Counted from the stretch's first letter, positions 1 through 8,407 are shown. The stretch is DNA of 64,000 nucleotides from Myxococcota bacterium (GCA_036229005.1 JAZAMN010000050.1:42998-106997), one strand, 5' to 3'. Numbers and translations are program-made. Notes: a model not told the origin generated them from the letters alone.

Positions 1-642
1 GGCGAGCTGGCAGCGGAGATGGCCGGGCCCGGCAAGTCCGTGATGGTCCACGTGGAGGGCACCCGCTCCCTGAACTGCCGCACCCCCGTGCAGAAGATGA
101 GCGGCGCCTTCATCGACATGGCCCTCAAGGTCAACGCCCCCATCGTGCCCGTGCGCTTTGTGGGCGGTCTGCCCGCGGCGGACCTGGAGGCCCGCGTGGA
201 GTTCCCCGTCGGCTTGAGCGCCGAGGGTCAGGAGCCCCCCAAGGGCCAGCCCTTCGCTCACGGCCTGGGACAGCAGGACATCTGGCTGGGCGCGCCCATC
301 CTGCCCGAGGACATCGCGCACCTGCCCTATGGTGAGCGCAAGCGCATCGTGATCGACGCCATCAACGGCCTCGGTCCCGCCAACGCCGCCGAGGCGCCCT
401 TCTCCGGCGACCTGGAGTTCGGGGAGAAGGTGGAGGCGTGGCGGTCCAGCACCGGCGCGACCCACGAGCACGCCACCTTGCTGCAGGTGCTGCGTGAGGC
501 CGAGTCGGTCTGCCCCGAGACCCAGGCCATCCTGGACGGTCTGGATGGCTCCGGCTTCCAGAGCGAGGACAGCGAGGCCGGCGCTTGGCTGGCGGAACTG
601 GCCCGCCGGCTCTACGGCGAGCAGGGTCCCCCAGTGAAGTAG
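1..642 (+). CDS. C-terminal part of a protein ending in a PlsC/AGPAT-like acyltransferase domain; probably a myxobacterial PUFA synthase Pfa3-type subunit (5' part outside window)
   Basis: Frame is open from position 1. It shows the acyltransferase block III-like HVEGTRS (cf. FPEGTRS) and block IV-like APIVPV, followed by a C-terminal extension. Confidence 0.6.
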   Translation, partial: GELAAEMAGPGKSVMVHVEGTRSLNCRTPVQKMSGAFIDMALKVNAPIVPVRFVGGLPAADLEARVEFPVGLSAEGQEPPKGQPFAHGLGQQDIWLGAPILPEDIAHLPYGERKRIVIDAINGLGPANAAEAPFSGDLEFGEKVEAWRSSTGATHEHATLLQVLREAESVCPETQAILDGLDGSGFQSEDSEAGAWLAELARRLYGEQGPPVK

Positions 643-2506: not shown

Positions 2507-3841
2507 TCAGTCCATGTACCCCAAGGCCCGCAGCGCCTCGACCATCTCGGGGGTCGCCTCGAAGCTCCGGTGAGGCGGAGCGGTCGCGTCCCAGGCGCGG
2601 AGCTGCGCCACCATCTGCTCGACCCGCTGAGGGTCCTGGACCACGTGCACGCTGGGCTCCCAGGCGTAGAGCTGCGCCTGCCGCCGGTAGGGCGTGACCA
2701 CGAGGCTGTAATCCTGGTGGGTGACCGAGCGCTGGAAGGGGAGGTTGTTCCAGCCCTGACCGTTCTCCAGGCTCGCCGGCTGGGTGGCCTCCGCGAAGCT
2801 CGGGGGCGCCTGCCAGCTCCGCTCTCCCCGCAGGATCGCCGAGGTGTCCTCGCCGTCGCCCAGGTCGCTCTCCCAGCCCAAGAGGCCCAGCACGCTGGGC
2901 CCGACATCCATCAAGCGGATCGGTCGGTGCACCACGCTCGCAGGCAGCGCCAACTCGCCGCTCCCCCAGAAGATCAGCGGCACGTGCACGATCGAAGGGT
3001 CCACGTCGGGTCCGTGTCCGAAGGGGCTCCCGCCGTCACTTCCCAGGTGCTCGCCGTGGTCTGAGAAGAGGACGATGAGGGCGGACTCCAGGCGCTCGCG
3101 CTCCCGCAGCCCATCGATCAGGGCGCCGATCTGCTGGTCGGTCCACTGGACCTCCGCCTGGTACAGGCACCGGGCCCGAGCGAGGTCATCGGGGCCCAGG
3201 CTGCCCGCGAACTCCGGCCGGGTCATCGCGATGGAGGTCTCGATCCCCGGCTGGATGGGTCCCTGGTAGGGCTCCGGGCAGGCCTGGTCCCGCAGCGCGG
3301 TGGGCGCCGAGTTCCAGGGGTTGTGGGGGTCGTAGTAGTGGACGAACAGGAAGGTCGGCTGGGCCTCGCCCTGCGCGTCGATGTGCCGGAGCGCCGCCTG
3401 GGTGACCTGGTCTGCTCCGACCTCGTGGATGCCGGTCTTGAGCTGCAGCTCGTGGTTGTCGTAGACGCGGAAGCCGCGCGAGAGGCCCATCTCCGGCTGC
3501 AGCGCGGTGCTCCCCACCACAGCGATGGTGTCCCAGCCCTTGGCCGCGAAGCGCTCCTGGAGGAGGGCGAGGCCCCCGGGTACCGGGAAGCCGTTGCGCA
3601 CCACCGTGGACCCGTGGCTCTCGCGCCCGCTGAAGACCCCGGTGTGCGAGGCCAGCGTGGTCGCGCTCTGGGAGAGGCCCCGCTCCACGCGCACGCCCTG
3701 GGCGGCGAGAGCGTCCACGTTCGGGGTGCTGGGCGGTCCCCCGTAGGCCCCCAATGCGTCGGCGCGGGTGGTGTCCATGCTCACGAAGAGCACCAGGGGA
3801 GGGGGGCTCTGACAGGCCAGCCAGGTGGTGATGAGCAGCAT
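2507..3841 (-). CDS. Sulfatase-like (alkaline phosphatase superfamily) lipoprotein
   Basis: Motifs LFVSMDTTRAD, TTLASHTGVFSG (nucleophile region), FVHYYDPH, FSDHGE, HVPLIF and C-terminal EALRALGY. N-terminal MLLITTWLAC lipobox. Start is ATG 3841; the upstream part of the 786-aa ORF is a shadow of the divergent gene. Confidence 0.85.
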   Translation of the reverse strand: MLLITTWLACQSPPPLVLFVSMDTTRADALGAYGGPPSTPNVDALAAQGVRVERGLSQSATTLASHTGVFSGRESHGSTVVRNGFPVPGGLALLQERFAAKGWDTIAVVGSTALQPEMGLSRGFRVYDNHELQLKTGIHEVGADQVTQAALRHIDAQGEAQPTFLFVHYYDPHNPWNSAPTALRDQACPEPYQGPIQPGIETSIAMTRPEFAGSLGPDDLARARCLYQAEVQWTDQQIGALIDGLRERERLESALIVLFSDHGEHLGSDGGSPFGHGPDVDPSIVHVPLIFWGSGELALPASVVHRPIRLMDVGPSVLGLLGWESDLGDGEDTSAILRGERSWQAPPSFAEATQPASLENGQGWNNLPFQRSVTHQDYSLVVTPYRRQAQLYAWEPSVHVVQDPQRVEQMVAQLRAWDATAPPHRSFEATPEMVEALRALGYMD

Positions 3842-3857: not shown

Positions 3858-3862
3858 GGGCC

Positions 3863-5116
3863 ATGTCCTTCGACGCCGTCACCACCGCGGAGCTGCCCTC
3901 GCGGCAGGTCACCACCCTCCACCTCTTTCGCCACGGTCAGGTGGAGACGGGCGGGCTGCGGCTGGCCTACGGACACTCGGATCTGCCCCTCTCCATGCAA
4001 GGTGAGGACCAGCACGCCGCCCTGGAGCGCTTCGCCGCGCGCCTGCCCGCTCCGGACGGGGTGCTCAGCTCGGATCTGCGCCGCTGCATGCACTTGGCCG
4101 AGGGGCTGGGCAGGGTGTCCTCGCTGGCGCCCCGCTGCCATCCGGAGCTCCGTGAGCAGGACATGGGGGAGTGGGAGGGCCAGGCGTGGGGGGCGCTCTC
4201 CAGCCGCTCCTCCCAGGCCATCCACGACTACTGGGACGACTATGTGGGGGCCCGGCCGCCAGGTGGCGAGAGCCTCCGCGATCTGGACGCGCGCGTATGG
4301 GACTGGTGGCAGGGCATGCAGGACGAGCTGGCCGGCGGGACCTGGTGGGTGGCGGCGCACATCGGCGTGATCCGCGTGCTGCTCTGTCGGCTGATGGGGC
4401 ACCCGCTGGACGAGGCCCTGCGCTTCGCACCCGCCCGCGGCTCCCACACCAAGCTCCTGCTCGCCGAGGCCGGCGCGGTCCTGGAGGTCCTGGGAGAGCA
4501 GCCGCTGCCCGTCCCCAAGGCCGAGTCGGGGCCCCTCAAGATCGCCCTGAGCGGTAGCGCGGGGGTGGGAAAGAGCACGCTTGGGCAGGCCCTGTCCAAA
4601 CGCCTGGGGGTCCCATTCATCCCGGAGGGCATGCGGGCGCGGCTGGAGGGCGGTCTGCAGCTCCACCGGCTGGATCGAGGGCAGCTCCGGGACCTGATCC
4701 ACAGCCTCTGGGACGAGCAGCTCGAAGCGGAGCGGCGCGCCGTCCGGGACCACGGGGGCTTCGTCGCGGATCGGGGGGCGGCGGACTTCGCGGCCTTCTA
4801 TCTGCACTACCGCTTCATCGAGGCCCAGGACGGGACCGCCGCGTTCGTCTCCCAGGCGCTCGCCCATGCCCGCGGCTACACCCGGACCGTGGTGCTCCCC
4901 TGGGGCGCGATCCCGCTGCGCTCGGACGGGGTGCGCAGCAGCAATCCCTGGCTACAGCGGCACTTCCAGGCGGTGGTCGAGGGCGTGATCCACCGGGAGG
5001 TCCAGCGCGAGCGGGTCCTCTGGCTCCCCACCGAGCGGCGCTCCCTGCGCGAGCGGGTGGACTGGGTGTCGAGCTGGCTGCCTGCTGGATTCGCGCTCAA
5101 GTCCCGCCCCCGGTGA
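3863..5116 (+). CDS. Fusion of histidine phosphatase (PGM/CobC-like) and P-loop nucleotide kinase (NadR/AAA_28-like)
   Basis: Phosphatase motifs LFRHG, SSDLRRC, LREQDMGEWEG, PPGGES and AHIGVIR. Kinase motifs KIALSGSAGVGKST (Walker A), FVADRG and DGVR. Confidence 0.85.
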   Translation: MSFDAVTTAELPSRQVTTLHLFRHGQVETGGLRLAYGHSDLPLSMQGEDQHAALERFAARLPAPDGVLSSDLRRCMHLAEGLGRVSSLAPRCHPELREQDMGEWEGQAWGALSSRSSQAIHDYWDDYVGARPPGGESLRDLDARVWDWWQGMQDELAGGTWWVAAHIGVIRVLLCRLMGHPLDEALRFAPARGSHTKLLLAEAGAVLEVLGEQPLPVPKAESGPLKIALSGSAGVGKSTLGQALSKRLGVPFIPEGMRARLEGGLQLHRLDRGQLRDLIHSLWDEQLEAERRAVRDHGGFVADRGAADFAAFYLHYRFIEAQDGTAAFVSQALAHARGYTRTVVLPWGAIPLRSDGVRSSNPWLQRHFQAVVEGVIHREVQRERVLWLPTERRSLRERVDWVSSWLPAGFALKSRPR

Positions 5117-5146: not shown

Positions 5147-7528
5147 ATGCCCCGACTGAGCCTTTGCCTCATCGCCAAGGATGAAGAGGAGATGCTGGAG
5201 GACTGCCTGCGCTCGGTGCGCGGCGTGGTGGACGAGATCATCGTCTGCGACACCGGCTCCAGCGACGGCACCCGCGAGCTCGCCACACTGCTCGGGGCCC
5301 AGGTCATCGAGCATGTCTGGGAGGAGGACTTCTCGGCGGCCCGGAACGCTGCCCTCACCGCTTCGACCGGTACCCATGTCCTCATCCTGGACGCCGACGA
5401 GCGGCTCACCCCTGGCGCCGGCGAGGTCATCCTGGCGGCGATCCAGGACCCCACGCTGGATCTGGGCATGCTCCCCCTGCACAACGCGGAGCGCCTGGAC
5501 GCGCCGGTCGACCAGGTGCTCAGCGGGCTCGCTCGGCGCGGCGACCCGGTGGACCTGCCGCGCCTGTTCCGTCGCACCCCCGACCTGCGCTGGGAGGGGG
5601 CCATCCACGAGTCGCCGAACACCTGGCTGAGCAGCGCGCCCCGCCGGATCCGGCGCCTGGAGGCGCCCATCCTTCACCTGGGGGCGGTCCCCAGCCTGCG
5701 GCAGGCGCGGGGCAAGCGGGAGCGCAACATCAAGCTGCTCCAGGCGCGCGTGGCGCAGGAGCCGGGCAACCCCCAGGTCTACGCCTACCTGGCCGGAGAG
5801 CTGCTCCACGAGGGGCGGAGAGAGGAGGCCGAGCGGGTGATCGAGGCCGGCTGGGCCGCCGCGGGCAGGCTGGGGGATGGGCCTCGGCCCGTGCTGGTTC
5901 AGCTCGTGACCCTGCGCGCCCACACCTTGCTGGAGCAGGGCCAGGTGACCGAGGCCCTGGCGGCGCTGGGCCAGGCGCGGGAGTGGAGGGTCCAACACCC
6001 CAACGTGGACCTTCTGGAGGCGCTGGCGCTGCGCCAGCTCGACCCCCCCGCGCGGTCTCGGGCGGCCCAGCTCCTGGAGCGCTGCCTGAACTGGAAGCAG
6101 GGCCTCGCGCAGGAGCCGATCCCCGGCGCTCTGGGCTGGCTCTCGGCTCAGCACCTGGGCGAACTCCGCCTGGAGCTGGGCGAGCTGGACGCGGCCGAGC
6201 TGGCTTTCGGCCGGGCGCTGCAGGAGAAGCCGGATCTGGAGGGGCCTGCCCTTGGAATGGCCGAGCTCGCGCTGCGTCGGGGGGATGCTGCGGCGGCCCT
6301 GAGGCTGGTCGAGCCTTGGCTCCCGCTGGAGAAGCCCGACCCTTGGGTCCTCGCCGCCGCGAGCTGCGCGGCCCTCGGAGAGCCCGGCGACATGCAGGCG
6401 CTGGTCCGTCGCGCCGTGCAGCTCGCGGACAAGGGCTTCGTCGGGCGCCACCGGGCTGACTGGCTCAAGGAGCTGCTGGTCGAGGCGGACCTGTACGCCG
6501 GAAAGCCTCACCCCGGGCCCGGAGTCGTCGGCCGCCTGGGCGCGCTGGCCTCCCGGCTGCCCAACCGGGACGAGCGGGCCATCCACCCCGAGGGCGCCGA
6601 GCGCGTCGCCGTGAACCTGGTCCGGGCCGGCCACCCCGAGCTGCTGGAGCCCTTCTTCGAGCCGCGGGCCGACTCGCTGCTCCCGGGGCTCGCCATGCGC
6701 GTCAAGCTGGCGCTGGCCGAGCAGGGGATCGTCGTCGAAGACGATGGGCAGGCGGAGTTCGTGTTCATCGGAGGCGCGGGCCGCAGCGGCACCACGCTGT
6801 TCCGGGCCATGCTCGGCGCCCACGGCGGCATCCACTGTGGGCCGGAGCTCAAGCTGGTCCCCATCATCTCCGGGCTCCGCGAGCAGTGGGTGCGCACCAT
6901 GGGCAAGGACCTGCAGGAGGCCGGCGTCGGAACCGAGGTCCTGGACGAGGCCGTGCGCTCCTTCATCACCGCGCTGCTGCACGGTGGCGCGCCCGAGGGC
7001 ATGCGGGTCGCGGAGAAGACCCCCCACAACCTGCTGCACACGGCGCTGCTCGGGCGGCTCTTCCCGCGGGCCCGCTTCATCCACGTGGTCCGAGATGGCC
7101 GGGCGGTCGCGGCCTCTCTGGTCCGGCAGCGCTGGGTCGATCCCGCGACGGGGAAGCCCATCTGGTATTGCCAGGATGTCGAGGGGGCTTCTCGATACTG
7201 GGTCGAGGTCGTCTCCACCATCCGGCATCAGGCGGCGTCCGTACCGGGTCGCTACCTGGAGGTCCGATACGAGGAGCTGGTGCAGTCTCCCGAGGACACC
7301 ATGCGCCGGGTGCTCGCGTTCCTGGGGGAGCCCTGGGACGCCGCGGTGCTCGCACACCACGAGGCCGACACCCGCCTGTCCTCGCGTGAGGCCAGCAGCG
7401 CTGCGGTGGCGGGGGCGCTCAGCGATGGCGCTCTGCGCAAGTGGCGTACCCAGCTCTCCGACGCGGACCTCAGCCGCTTCGACCAGCGCACACAGAGCGT
7501 GCTGGCGGAGCTGGGGTACGCGAGCTGA
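5147..7528 (+). CDS. GT2 glycosyltransferase - TPR - PAPS-dependent sulfotransferase (TPST-like) fusion
   Basis: GT2: LSLCLIAKDEE, DTGSSDGT, DFSAARN and LDADE (DxD). The middle is helical and TPR-like. Sulfotransferase from about 6758: FIGGAGRSGTTL (5'-PSB), EKTP, RDGRAVAAS (3'-PB) and RYEELV. Confidence 0.9.
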   Translation: MPRLSLCLIAKDEEEMLEDCLRSVRGVVDEIIVCDTGSSDGTRELATLLGAQVIEHVWEEDFSAARNAALTASTGTHVLILDADERLTPGAGEVILAAIQDPTLDLGMLPLHNAERLDAPVDQVLSGLARRGDPVDLPRLFRRTPDLRWEGAIHESPNTWLSSAPRRIRRLEAPILHLGAVPSLRQARGKRERNIKLLQARVAQEPGNPQVYAYLAGELLHEGRREEAERVIEAGWAAAGRLGDGPRPVLVQLVTLRAHTLLEQGQVTEALAALGQAREWRVQHPNVDLLEALALRQLDPPARSRAAQLLERCLNWKQGLAQEPIPGALGWLSAQHLGELRLELGELDAAELAFGRALQEKPDLEGPALGMAELALRRGDAAAALRLVEPWLPLEKPDPWVLAAASCAALGEPGDMQALVRRAVQLADKGFVGRHRADWLKELLVEADLYAGKPHPGPGVVGRLGALASRLPNRDERAIHPEGAERVAVNLVRAGHPELLEPFFEPRADSLLPGLAMRVKLALAEQGIVVEDDGQAEFVFIGGAGRSGTTLFRAMLGAHGGIHCGPELKLVPIISGLREQWVRTMGKDLQEAGVGTEVLDEAVRSFITALLHGGAPEGMRVAEKTPHNLLHTALLGRLFPRARFIHVVRDGRAVAASLVRQRWVDPATGKPIWYCQDVEGASRYWVEVVSTIRHQAASVPGRYLEVRYEELVQSPEDTMRRVLAFLGEPWDAAVLAHHEADTRLSSREASSAAVAGALSDGALRKWRTQLSDADLSRFDQRTQSVLAELGYAS

Positions 7529-7546: not shown

Positions 7547-8242
7547 TCACTCCTCGGAGTGGCCGGCGTCAAAGGGGATGACCTCGCCTTGCTTGCGGGG
7601 ACGGACCAGCGCGACCCCCAGCAGCAGCGCCAGGGCTCGGTCGTACTCTGCGCCCAGGGCCTGGTTGGCGGAGAACAGCGCCAGGCCGACGCCGACCGGT
7701 GCGGACAGGCGCGCGACCTGCTCGGCGCCCTTGCGCAGTCCCACCAACACGGGGCCGACCTTGGGGATCAAGGGCAGGATGGGCTTGTAGGGAGCGCTCA
7801 GGCGAAGGAGCTGCTTGGACACCCAGCCCGAGCCCGCGGCGGCGCCCGCACCCGCAGCGCCGGTCCACGCGACCCACTGGCTGCGGCGGAGGCGGTTCAC
7901 GTGCTTGTCGTCCAGCTCCTCCAGGGCCTCGACGCCCTCGCAGCGGGAGAGCAGCGCCAGGCTGAGGGCGTCCAGGCGCTCCCAGTCGCCCTGATCCGGG
8001 TCGAGCTCGACCTTCAACCGGGAGGCGGTCCGGTCCACGAGCTGCCCGAGGCTGTCGCGCATGGCCAGGACACCGACCGGCGTGTGGGTGCGCCACCAGA
8101 GCGCACGGACCAGCTTGTCGGCCAGCTCGGGGGCCGAGAGATCCGCCTTGGGGCTGATTCCACCGGCCTCCAGGACCTCCCGGAGGGCCGCTGGATCCGC
8201 CTGGGAGAGGCTGTTTCGCACCATCTGAGCGTCGACCTTCAC
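7547..8242 (-). CDS. Hypothetical protein, weakly YaaW/UPF0174-like
   Basis: GTG 8242 is preceded by GAGGAG, with a -10-like TAGAAT at 8287-8292. The C-terminus APVGVGLALFSANQALGAEYDRALALLLGVALVR is reminiscent of the YaaW family. Confidence 0.55.
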   Translation of the reverse strand: MKVDAQMVRNSLSQADPAALREVLEAGGISPKADLSAPELADKLVRALWWRTHTPVGVLAMRDSLGQLVDRTASRLKVELDPDQGDWERLDALSLALLSRCEGVEALEELDDKHVNRLRRSQWVAWTGAAGAGAAAGSGWVSKQLLRLSAPYKPILPLIPKVGPVLVGLRKGAEQVARLSAPVGVGLALFSANQALGAEYDRALALLLGVALVRPRKQGEVIPFDAGHSEE

Positions 8243-8407
8243 ACCTATCTCCTCAAAACCACGGGCCAAGGGAGGTCCTGGCCTCGATTCTACCCGCCAG
8301 CGGCCCCGGATATTTCCCAACATCAAAATGTGGCGCTGGGCCAAAGATGCGCTAATGGTGGGCCGCGGGCCGTTTTTTGGCCCTGAACACCCCATCGTGG
8401 AGATGCC

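Follow-up and report, generated by a model that had tools for sequence, protein, structure and literature searches.

A Myxococcota protein family joins a GmaR-like glycosyltransferase to a sulfotransferase domain close to animal tyrosylprotein sulfotransferases, with a possible role in flagellin modification

A 64,000-nucleotide stretch of DNA from a Myxococcota bacterium (GCA_036229005.1, JAZAMN010000050.1:42998-106997; hereafter the window) encodes a 793-residue protein in which a family 2 glycosyltransferase (GT2) domain, tetratricopeptide repeats (TPRs) and a helical linker are followed by a sulfotransferase (ST) domain that resembles the tyrosylprotein sulfotransferases (TPSTs) of animals. 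This fusion of a GmaR-like protein glycosyltransferase with a TPST-like ST is real, conserved and uncharacterised, and, among the prokaryotic relatives of animal-type TPST found here, the ST of its family is the closest. As for its function, sequence comparisons give a little better than an even chance that the protein would O-glycosylate flagellin and then sulfate the sugar added.

The open reading frame (ORF; 5147-7528, plus strand) is intact and open for 793 residues, with a GC content at third codon positions (GC3) of 0.92 in the N-terminal part and 0.90 in the ST part. Pfam recognises GT2 (PF00535) at residues 5-104 (E 9e-18), TPRs around residues 336-426 (TPR_19 at 342-399) and Sulfotransfer_3 at residues 539-731 (E 8e-37). 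The AlphaFold model, built on a 53-row alignment, is confident throughout (mean predicted local distance difference test 93.8, predicted template modelling score 0.85), and Foldseek places ThuS/SunS and TPST1/2 in its top ranks. A frameshift or a chance fusion is ruled out by the existence of full-length relatives at about 36-64% identity: the fusion has 510 matches, and most of the best 80 align over their whole length at about 41-64% identity. Their source names and record titles indicate Myxococcota, including UBA796-type bins, and the fusion is confirmed as a conserved family of one Myxococcota order, within which the family (f1-f7) and genus (g14, g19, g30) labels used below are groupings. 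No membrane-spanning stretch was found in the protein (best 19-residue hydropathy 1.15), in agreement with the cytoplasmic two-in-one enzyme proposed in a preliminary description of this sequence and supporting a predicted soluble product. Animal TPSTs, on the other hand, carry a type II Golgi membrane anchor, which the fusion lacks, its N-terminus being the GT2 domain.

The motifs that had prompted the comparison with animal TPSTs—FIGGAGRSGTTLFRAMLGAH, IHCGPE, EAGVGTEVLDEAV, EKTP, VVRDGRA, LSSREASSAAV and GALRKW—are all present in the translation. In a PDB sequence search with the ST domain, tick and human TPSTs take the first seven of ten places (E 1e-39 to 8e-34), followed by curacin/olefin-synthase STs (E 7e-13 and 2.5e-12). 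Superposition of the model, which the preliminary description had proposed as a check, gave Z 31-32, a root-mean-square deviation (rmsd) of 1.6-2.0 Å and 33-36% identity on TPST1, TPST2 and tick TPST (5wrj, 3ap1, 8w5z), the match to TPST1 (5wrj_A) covering 255 residues at Z 32.1, 2.0 Å and 36% identity; on the curacin/olefin STs the values were Z 22.6-23.1 and 4.8-5.4 Å. The presumed catalytic residues R546, E567, K624 and S750 align with R79, E100, K159 and S286 of TPST1, and the catalytic triad has been confirmed in tick TPST (PMC10951654). They are conserved in 103, 104, 102 and 100 of 104 family rows, a set that includes near-duplicates and was compared with 36 eukaryotic and 46 outgroup rows; however, they also occur in 46, 46, 45 and 31 of the outgroup rows, and are therefore not diagnostic of TPST. 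More specific are W114 (TPST1 numbering; 28/36 eukaryotic, 95/104 family and 1/46 outgroup rows), A127 (30/36, 92/104 and 1/46), A188 (32/36, 87/104 and 0/46) and D135 (26/36, 101/104 and 13/46), which on these alignments are derived positions shared by eukaryotic TPSTs and the family. G128, A137 and the signature residues of the TPST dimer helices α2-α4 are likewise kept, and the EAG..LD.A helix region to which the preliminary description had drawn attention is indeed common to TPSTs and largely missing from other bacterial relatives.

The same relationship is recovered in phylogenetic trees, where the ST domain groups with TPSTs and away from generic bacterial Sulfotransfer_3 rows, as that description had anticipated. 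The domain is matched by 32,820 representatives, 156 of them at 1e-30 or better; among the best 150, 18 are eukaryotic and of TPST type (judged as such from sequence, two of them verified by name or against the PDB). A clade of TPSTs plus the family was obtained with FastTree on 241 rows (support 1.0), with quick IQ-TREE runs on 95 rows (Shimodaira-Hasegawa-like approximate likelihood ratio test, SH-aLRT, 94) and, under C20, on 69 rows (SH-aLRT 91), and in careful trees of 44 chosen rows (100/99 under LG+G4; 99/99 under LG+C20 with posterior mean site frequencies). All eukaryotic rows fall into one clade (100/100) that does not include the family. Two domains of the unpublished genome G196, which bears on none of the conclusions, are among the distant rows of the 241-row tree. 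Approximately unbiased (AU) tests modestly reject both a TPST placement outside the group of near and Myxococcota sequences (p 0.030) and a placement with other near sequences (p 0.012), and do not decide between sister and nested positions (p 0.108). Two apparently non-animal TPST-type long proteins (P0277 and P0278) carry a CGEETR motif, and a TPST-type EukProt record, also apparently non-animal (P0160), takes a basal position among the eukaryotic rows.

Since the tree rows had been collected by similarity to the query ST—RaxST being absent from the trees and Asgard archaea not knowingly sampled—searches seeded with TPST were also run, and these place the family first among prokaryotic matches. 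When a TPST query was compared with proteins of 619-2000 residues, the top ranks went to animal records and to two TPST-type proteins without a name; three members of the family came next (E 9e-42 to 5e-38), and every generic TPR-ST ranked below them. A TPST profile scored the ST domains of the order at 214-248 bits (140 for one degenerate member), and the best scores in three other phyla were 185, 197 and 174 bits in 251, 251 and 301 genomes, with only three to seven candidates scored per genome. Of 80 loci kept from a TPST-seeded metagenome scan, 77 have a better score with TPST than with the query ST, and are taken as eukaryotic from these scores alone; the remaining three are family members. 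A search of the ESM Atlas with the ST returned only generic Sulfotransfer_3 clusters.

Despite these similarities, the family differs clearly from TPST on the acceptor side. TPST1 holds its acidic peptide through R102, R106, R123, R285, W114 and T199 (PMC5562738). Position 102 is basic in 101 of the 104 family rows (K569 here) and W114 is kept as W581, but Arg or Lys at positions 106, 123 and 285 occurs in only 2, 0 and 0 family rows versus 29, 31 and 20 of the 36 eukaryotic ones, and T199 in 3/104 versus 24/36. R106 and R123 correspond to I573 and D588 in this protein, position 123 being mostly Asp in the family (62/104). Where TPST has the CNKDP and RKVTI motifs, the family has EKTPHN, FIHV, RYE and an acceptor-side loop of the form W-x-D...P-x-(W)Y, found in 94/104 family, 24/46 outgroup and 0/36 eukaryotic rows. 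TPST-type tyrosine sulfation would thus be unlikely, because three of the four arginines that bind acidic peptides are replaced and a bacterial Trp loop, whose aromatic residues would suit a sugar acceptor, occupies the place of the peptide-pairing strand. Judged from the alignments, the family ST belongs with TPST in its chemistry but not in its substrate recognition. The preliminary description had left open whether the protein target or the added sugar is sulfated, and had named loss of the peptide-binding groove as a result that would speak against its comparison with TPST; the residues of the groove are lost in part, with K569 and W581 retained, and the comparison now favours the sugar over the protein.

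A true tyrosine sulfotransferase acting on the protein target of the GT2, with a specificity other than the acidic TPST motif, could still be argued from the clade shared with eukaryotic TPSTs (99/99, 100/99) and from the retained fold, catalytic tetrad, W114, R102-equivalent Lys and dimer helices. Xanthomonas RaxST, a bacterial protein sulfotransferase dependent on 3'-phosphoadenosine 5'-phosphosulfate (PAPS), provides a precedent for tyrosine sulfation (PMC4646787), although it is a stand-alone enzyme with a linked peptide and exporter. Against this stand the replacements at R106, R123 (mostly by Asp), R285 and T199, the match of the acceptor-side loop to a wider bacterial subfamily, and the fact that the conserved tyrosines of flagellin are the same with and without an ST in the genome, so that we consider this alternative quite unlikely.

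The N-terminal half points to a protein glycosyltransferase, as had been supposed. When residues 1-438 are compared with PDB sequences, the top match is the glycosyltransferase domain of GmaR, the flagellin O-GlcNAc transferase of Listeria monocytogenes (PDB 22ao; E 4e-25 over residues 2-204), followed by the glycocin S-glycosyltransferases SunS and ThuS (PDB 7msp, 7msk; E 6e-14), with which the fusion shares the GT2+TPR fold (Z 24.6-26.0, SunS 26.0). The motifs D35, D82-x-D84-E85, H154-E155, H177, K190 and R193 recur in 49-53 of the 53 family rows, so that the DxD, HE, H and K..R motifs are intact in a GmaR-homologous GT2 that precedes the TPRs. GmaR, which is built of GT2, TPR and linker, adds GlcNAc to flagellin, which its TPRs are proposed to bind, and moonlights as an anti-repressor (PMC9638930). 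The fusion resembles it up to the linker; however, its C-terminal domain is an ST where that of GmaR is the MogR anti-repressor. A glycocin system of the SunS type is ruled out, since the fusion scores 57.7 bits against TIGR04195 (cut-off 350) and no SunS-type precursor-peptide or exporter gene is conserved among its compared neighbours.

The match to GmaR led to a test against flagellin. Within the order, Flagellin_N matches are present in all 36 genomes with the family ST, the base rate in the order sample being 43/61, and none of 20 flagellin-negative relatives, 13 of them at least 90% complete, has the ST. These flagellin-negative relatives come from several genera in families f1, f2, f4, f5, f6, f7 and f3, although f3, with the ST in 1/21 genomes, adds little through its four. 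The window's own family divides exactly into 17 genomes with both ST and flagellin and five with neither, and genera g19 and g30 each contain a genome of each kind. With the full-length query, 26/27 matched genomes are also flagellin-positive among the 50 genomes common to both scans. As controls, PilT was found in 52/61 genomes, including all 50 relatives outside f3, and adenylylsulfate (APS) kinase in 58/61, so that losses of the ST are not explained by pili or PAPS genes.

Gene context, a weaker line of evidence, places two relatives near flagellar genes. In genome G1397 a distance of 5.7 kb separates the end of the full fusion from a flgK-flgL-fliC-fliD-fliS-flgB-flgC run, and in Gracilibacillus dipsosauri (L021:925-10133) an ST of the sister clade belongs to a flagellin-glycosylation island with the order flgL-fliW-fliC-orf-GT2/TPR-GSCFA/ST-UDP-sugar dehydrogenase. 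In addition, a stand-alone paralogue on contig C24 of the window's genome, located between two glycosyltransferase genes, was counted in favour of sugar sulfation. This linker+ST paralogue (L001:8449-12404; 442 residues, 49% identity to the ST domain) has a Glyco_trans_1_3 gene on one side and, on the other, a GT4-type gene that is divergent, and the same arrangement occurs in L012.

That recurring arrangement could also be taken to mean that the ST acts on a free glycan, a glycolipid or a small molecule, the link with flagella being an indirect effect of shared lifestyle or ancestry, as kin share traits. However, the ST is fused to a GmaR/SunS-type protein glycosyltransferase with TPRs, and its absence from non-flagellated genera of several families, together with the contrasts within g19 and g30, makes this explanation very unlikely.

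The flagellins themselves are minimal, of about 275 residues, with a Ser/Thr-rich variable region. In 23 flagellins from ST-bearing genomes, an 80-residue window over this region holds 14-23 Ser/Thr, and Tyr only at its C-terminal helical end and otherwise in columns that genomes without the ST have as well; the variable region is devoid of Tyr, the conserved tyrosines being located in the flanking conserved parts irrespective of the presence of the ST. Flagellin genes of the window's genome (G000) lie at C3:15961-16788 and directly next to it, and extra divergent flagellin-like genes are found outside the operon (C47:80239-82517 and C59:77476; L222-L225, L229), one of them with a central insertion.

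Several observations weigh against flagellin sugar as the substrate. The Fisher p of 9e-5 for the association between ST and flagellin is overstated, since the genomes are related, and no family ST was found in 21 of the 43 flagellated genomes of the sample (a count in which G059 is ST-positive and three of the 21 lie outside the rows listed). In the window's genome the fusion lies on contig C50, unlinked to the flagellar operon on C3 (the APS kinase gene is on C35), and among the family loci examined only that of G1397 is close to flagellar genes, a further difference from GmaR; three paralogues consisting of GT2-TPR only lie 13-22 kb from lone flagellin genes. Flagellins from genomes with and without the ST are alike in Ser/Thr content and cannot be separated by sequence. 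K569 and W581 preserve part of the TPST peptide site. In the sister subfamily, two of five genomes tested have no flagellin, and one of its GT2-TPR-ST proteins comes from Mycobacterium botniense, which is not known to be flagellated. G1389 carries three copies of the fusion in a repeated cassette of beta-rich genes, away from flagellar genes, and a gene that tracks flagella can act on another motility-linked protein.

An alternative is the same chemistry on a different protein: hook, cap, another motility-linked surface protein, or co-encoded Ser/Thr-rich beta-proteins of the G1389 type. The fusion gene rarely adjoins fliC, FliD and FlgL of the window's genome are Ser/Thr-rich as well, members of the sister clade occur in flagellin-less genomes, and the three G1389 copies accompany five small beta-rich ORFs. 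Each cassette comprises two or three beta-rich ORFs rich in Ser, Thr and Asp (114-135 residues), the fusion, and two paralogous ORFs of 262-269 residues. The cassette ORFs have no Pfam or PHROG match and the genome no terminase match; one of the ORFs has weak phage-like Atlas matches (0.89, under the reliable range). Nevertheless, the best structural-database relative of the GT2 is GmaR, the Gracilibacillus island and G1397 put relatives beside fliC, and the ORFs flanking the G1389 copies are unmatched in the window's genome; a different protein target is therefore judged rather unlikely.

The pattern of decay among 95 full-length proteins bears on the order of the two reactions. The catalytic residues of GT2 and ST are lost together in 8/95, three have changes in the ST only, and none combines a dead glycosyltransferase with an intact ST, which fits an ST acting after the glycosyltransferase. 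The weight of this pattern is reduced by the fact that the eight cases look like one event, probably in one subclade. This subclade (L101, L103, L107 and L111 of genus g14; P0091, P0095, P0096, P0098, P0099, P0101, P0102 and P0127) has GG.WDSG in place of GG.GRSG, has lost H154, H177, K190 and R193, and adjoins an FkbM methyltransferase gene; its full-length proteins are candidate double pseudoenzymes. Their retention, and the moonlighting of GmaR as an anti-repressor (PMC9638930), could indicate a protein in which catalysis comes second to a role as regulator or scaffold of the flagellum, but 86/95 proteins keep the GT2 site and the catalytic Arg of the ST, and such a role appears extremely improbable.

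In the favoured model of flagellin modification, the TPR array would capture flagellin in the cytoplasm before export, as proposed for GmaR, and the GT2 would move a sugar from a nucleotide-sugar donor onto Ser/Thr of the variable region. The ST, probably a dimer through its TPST-type helices, would then transfer the sulfate of PAPS to a hydroxyl of that sugar by the TPST mechanism (R546 as acid, E567 as base, K624 and S750 stabilising), with the acceptor sugar held by the Trp/Tyr loop that stands in for the peptide strand. Flagellar filaments built from such flagellin would be anionic and sulfo-glycosylated.

Table 1. Features of the fusion gene, its upstream neighbour and the G1389 cassettes.
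Feature	Coordinates	Strand	Basis or remark
Whole gene, GT2-TPR-linker-ST fusion (P0001)	5147..7528	+	793 aa; translation, Pfam, AlphaFold model, full-length relatives
GT-A fold GT2 domain, GmaR/SunS type, residues 1-204	5147..5758	+	Pfam, PDB match, superposition, conserved motifs
TPR superhelix, about residues 205-430; likely substrate-binding part	5759..6436	+	Pfam, model, Foldseek
Helical linker, about residues 431-534, family-specific	6437..6748	+	Model, alignments
TPST-like PAPS-dependent ST domain, residues 535-793	6749..7525	+	Pfam, PDB matches, superposition
Catalytic codons R546, E567, K624, S750	6782-6784; 6845-6847; 7016-7018; 7394-7396	+	TPST1 alignment
Helices matching TPST dimer helices α2-α4 (W581, L-x-E-A-G, L-D-x-A), common to eukaryotic TPSTs	6854..6985	+	Alignment
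Bacterial Q-x-W-x-D...P-x-W-Y-C loop, residues 661-675, replacing the TPST peptide-pairing RKVTI strand	7127..7171	+	Alignment
Upstream neighbour, histidine phosphatase + AAA_28 fusion, co-oriented	3860..5116	+	Pfam; adjacent in 4 related loci only
G1389 cassette copies	L238:7352-11374; L239:8037-12911; L240:8010-12862		

The distribution of the family is centred on the order. The full-length query at E <= 1e-30 has matches in 36/61 relatives, some of them through GT2-TPR-only paralogues; the ST domain itself is found in 35/111 genomes of the order, to which G059 is added to give 36; and a TPST profile at 1e-32 detects 8/151 genomes across the phylum, seven in the order and one in the class. 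Variants of the fusion carry an added methyltransferase, a second ST, or a split-off linker+ST, and the helical linker is also present in the C24 paralogue and missing in some family members. No conserved operon or substrate gene was detected: neighbours recur in at most seven of 46 compared stretches and differ by genus, which argues against a shared precursor peptide. With regard to mobile elements, a phage origin was rejected: a scan of viral contigs gave one distant locus at 22%, and Terminase_6N is unmatched in G1389, whose flanking ORFs have no PHROG match. A plasmid search gave 18 records, all below 60% identity (28-33% among the matches listed).

Around the fusion gene, the histidine phosphatase + AAA_28 fusion directly upstream was not considered part of its system. 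A sulfatase gene (2507-3832, minus strand) is divergent from this neighbour, and the order of the two genes recurs in L003. On the other side, a 282-residue ORF without a Pfam match (7547-8395, minus strand) is convergent on the fusion in seven family loci. Two very long ORFs (2282 and over 2490 residues; L002:1178-15501) end just inside the start of the window (1-642).

Sulfated sugars on motility filaments have a precedent in Halobacterium, where Agl30 and Agl31 sulfate the N-glycan of archaellins and other glycoproteins (PMC11980604). Unlike the fusion, this is an archaeal N-glycan pathway with separate enzymes, and the two are likened by description, not by sequence. Among the literature matches listed, no bacterial sulfated motility-filament glycan was found.

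The relationship of the ST domain with TPST also raises the question of its direction of descent. A recent animal-to-bacterium transfer is ruled out by the monophyly of the eukaryotic rows (100/100), the bacterial motifs and the GC3 of 0.90. With a root among the distant bacterial rows, the motifs common to the family and the outgroup would imply a transfer from bacteria to eukaryotes. We can thus propose, though only tentatively, that animal-type TPST descends from a myxobacterial flagellin-glycan ST: this Myxococcota lineage would have donated the domain to eukaryotes, in which the sugar loop was remodelled into a groove for acidic peptides, and the fused enzyme would still serve the bacteria in building a sulfo-glycosylated filament. 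Myxococcota have been discussed as gene donors to eukaryotes (PMC12872458), and excerpts of a further article describe plant TPST as unrelated to animal TPST and do not mention Myxococcota (PMC12506393). The gene-donor literature found does not mention TPST, and no literature was found on the fusion family in searches for a bacterial homologue or the origin of TPST. A preprint on plasmalogens is reportedly part of the same gene-donor discussion. The readable supplements of two eukaryogenesis papers have no TPST entry, although a listing is possible in files beyond these, such as bioRxiv supplements.

TPST is the enzyme that sulfates chemokine receptors, coagulation inhibitors and hormones, and the family would offer a bacterial source for its animal type if the proposed descent is correct. 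With a soluble bacterial relative, assays and structures could test how the ancestral acceptor gave way to acidic Tyr peptides, and the Gracilibacillus dipsosauri island, with its GSCFA + Sulfotransfer_3 fusion, represents a culturable model for flagellin-glycan sulfation. Should the function favoured here hold true, one polypeptide would be expected to build a sulfated O-glycan on a bacterial flagellin.

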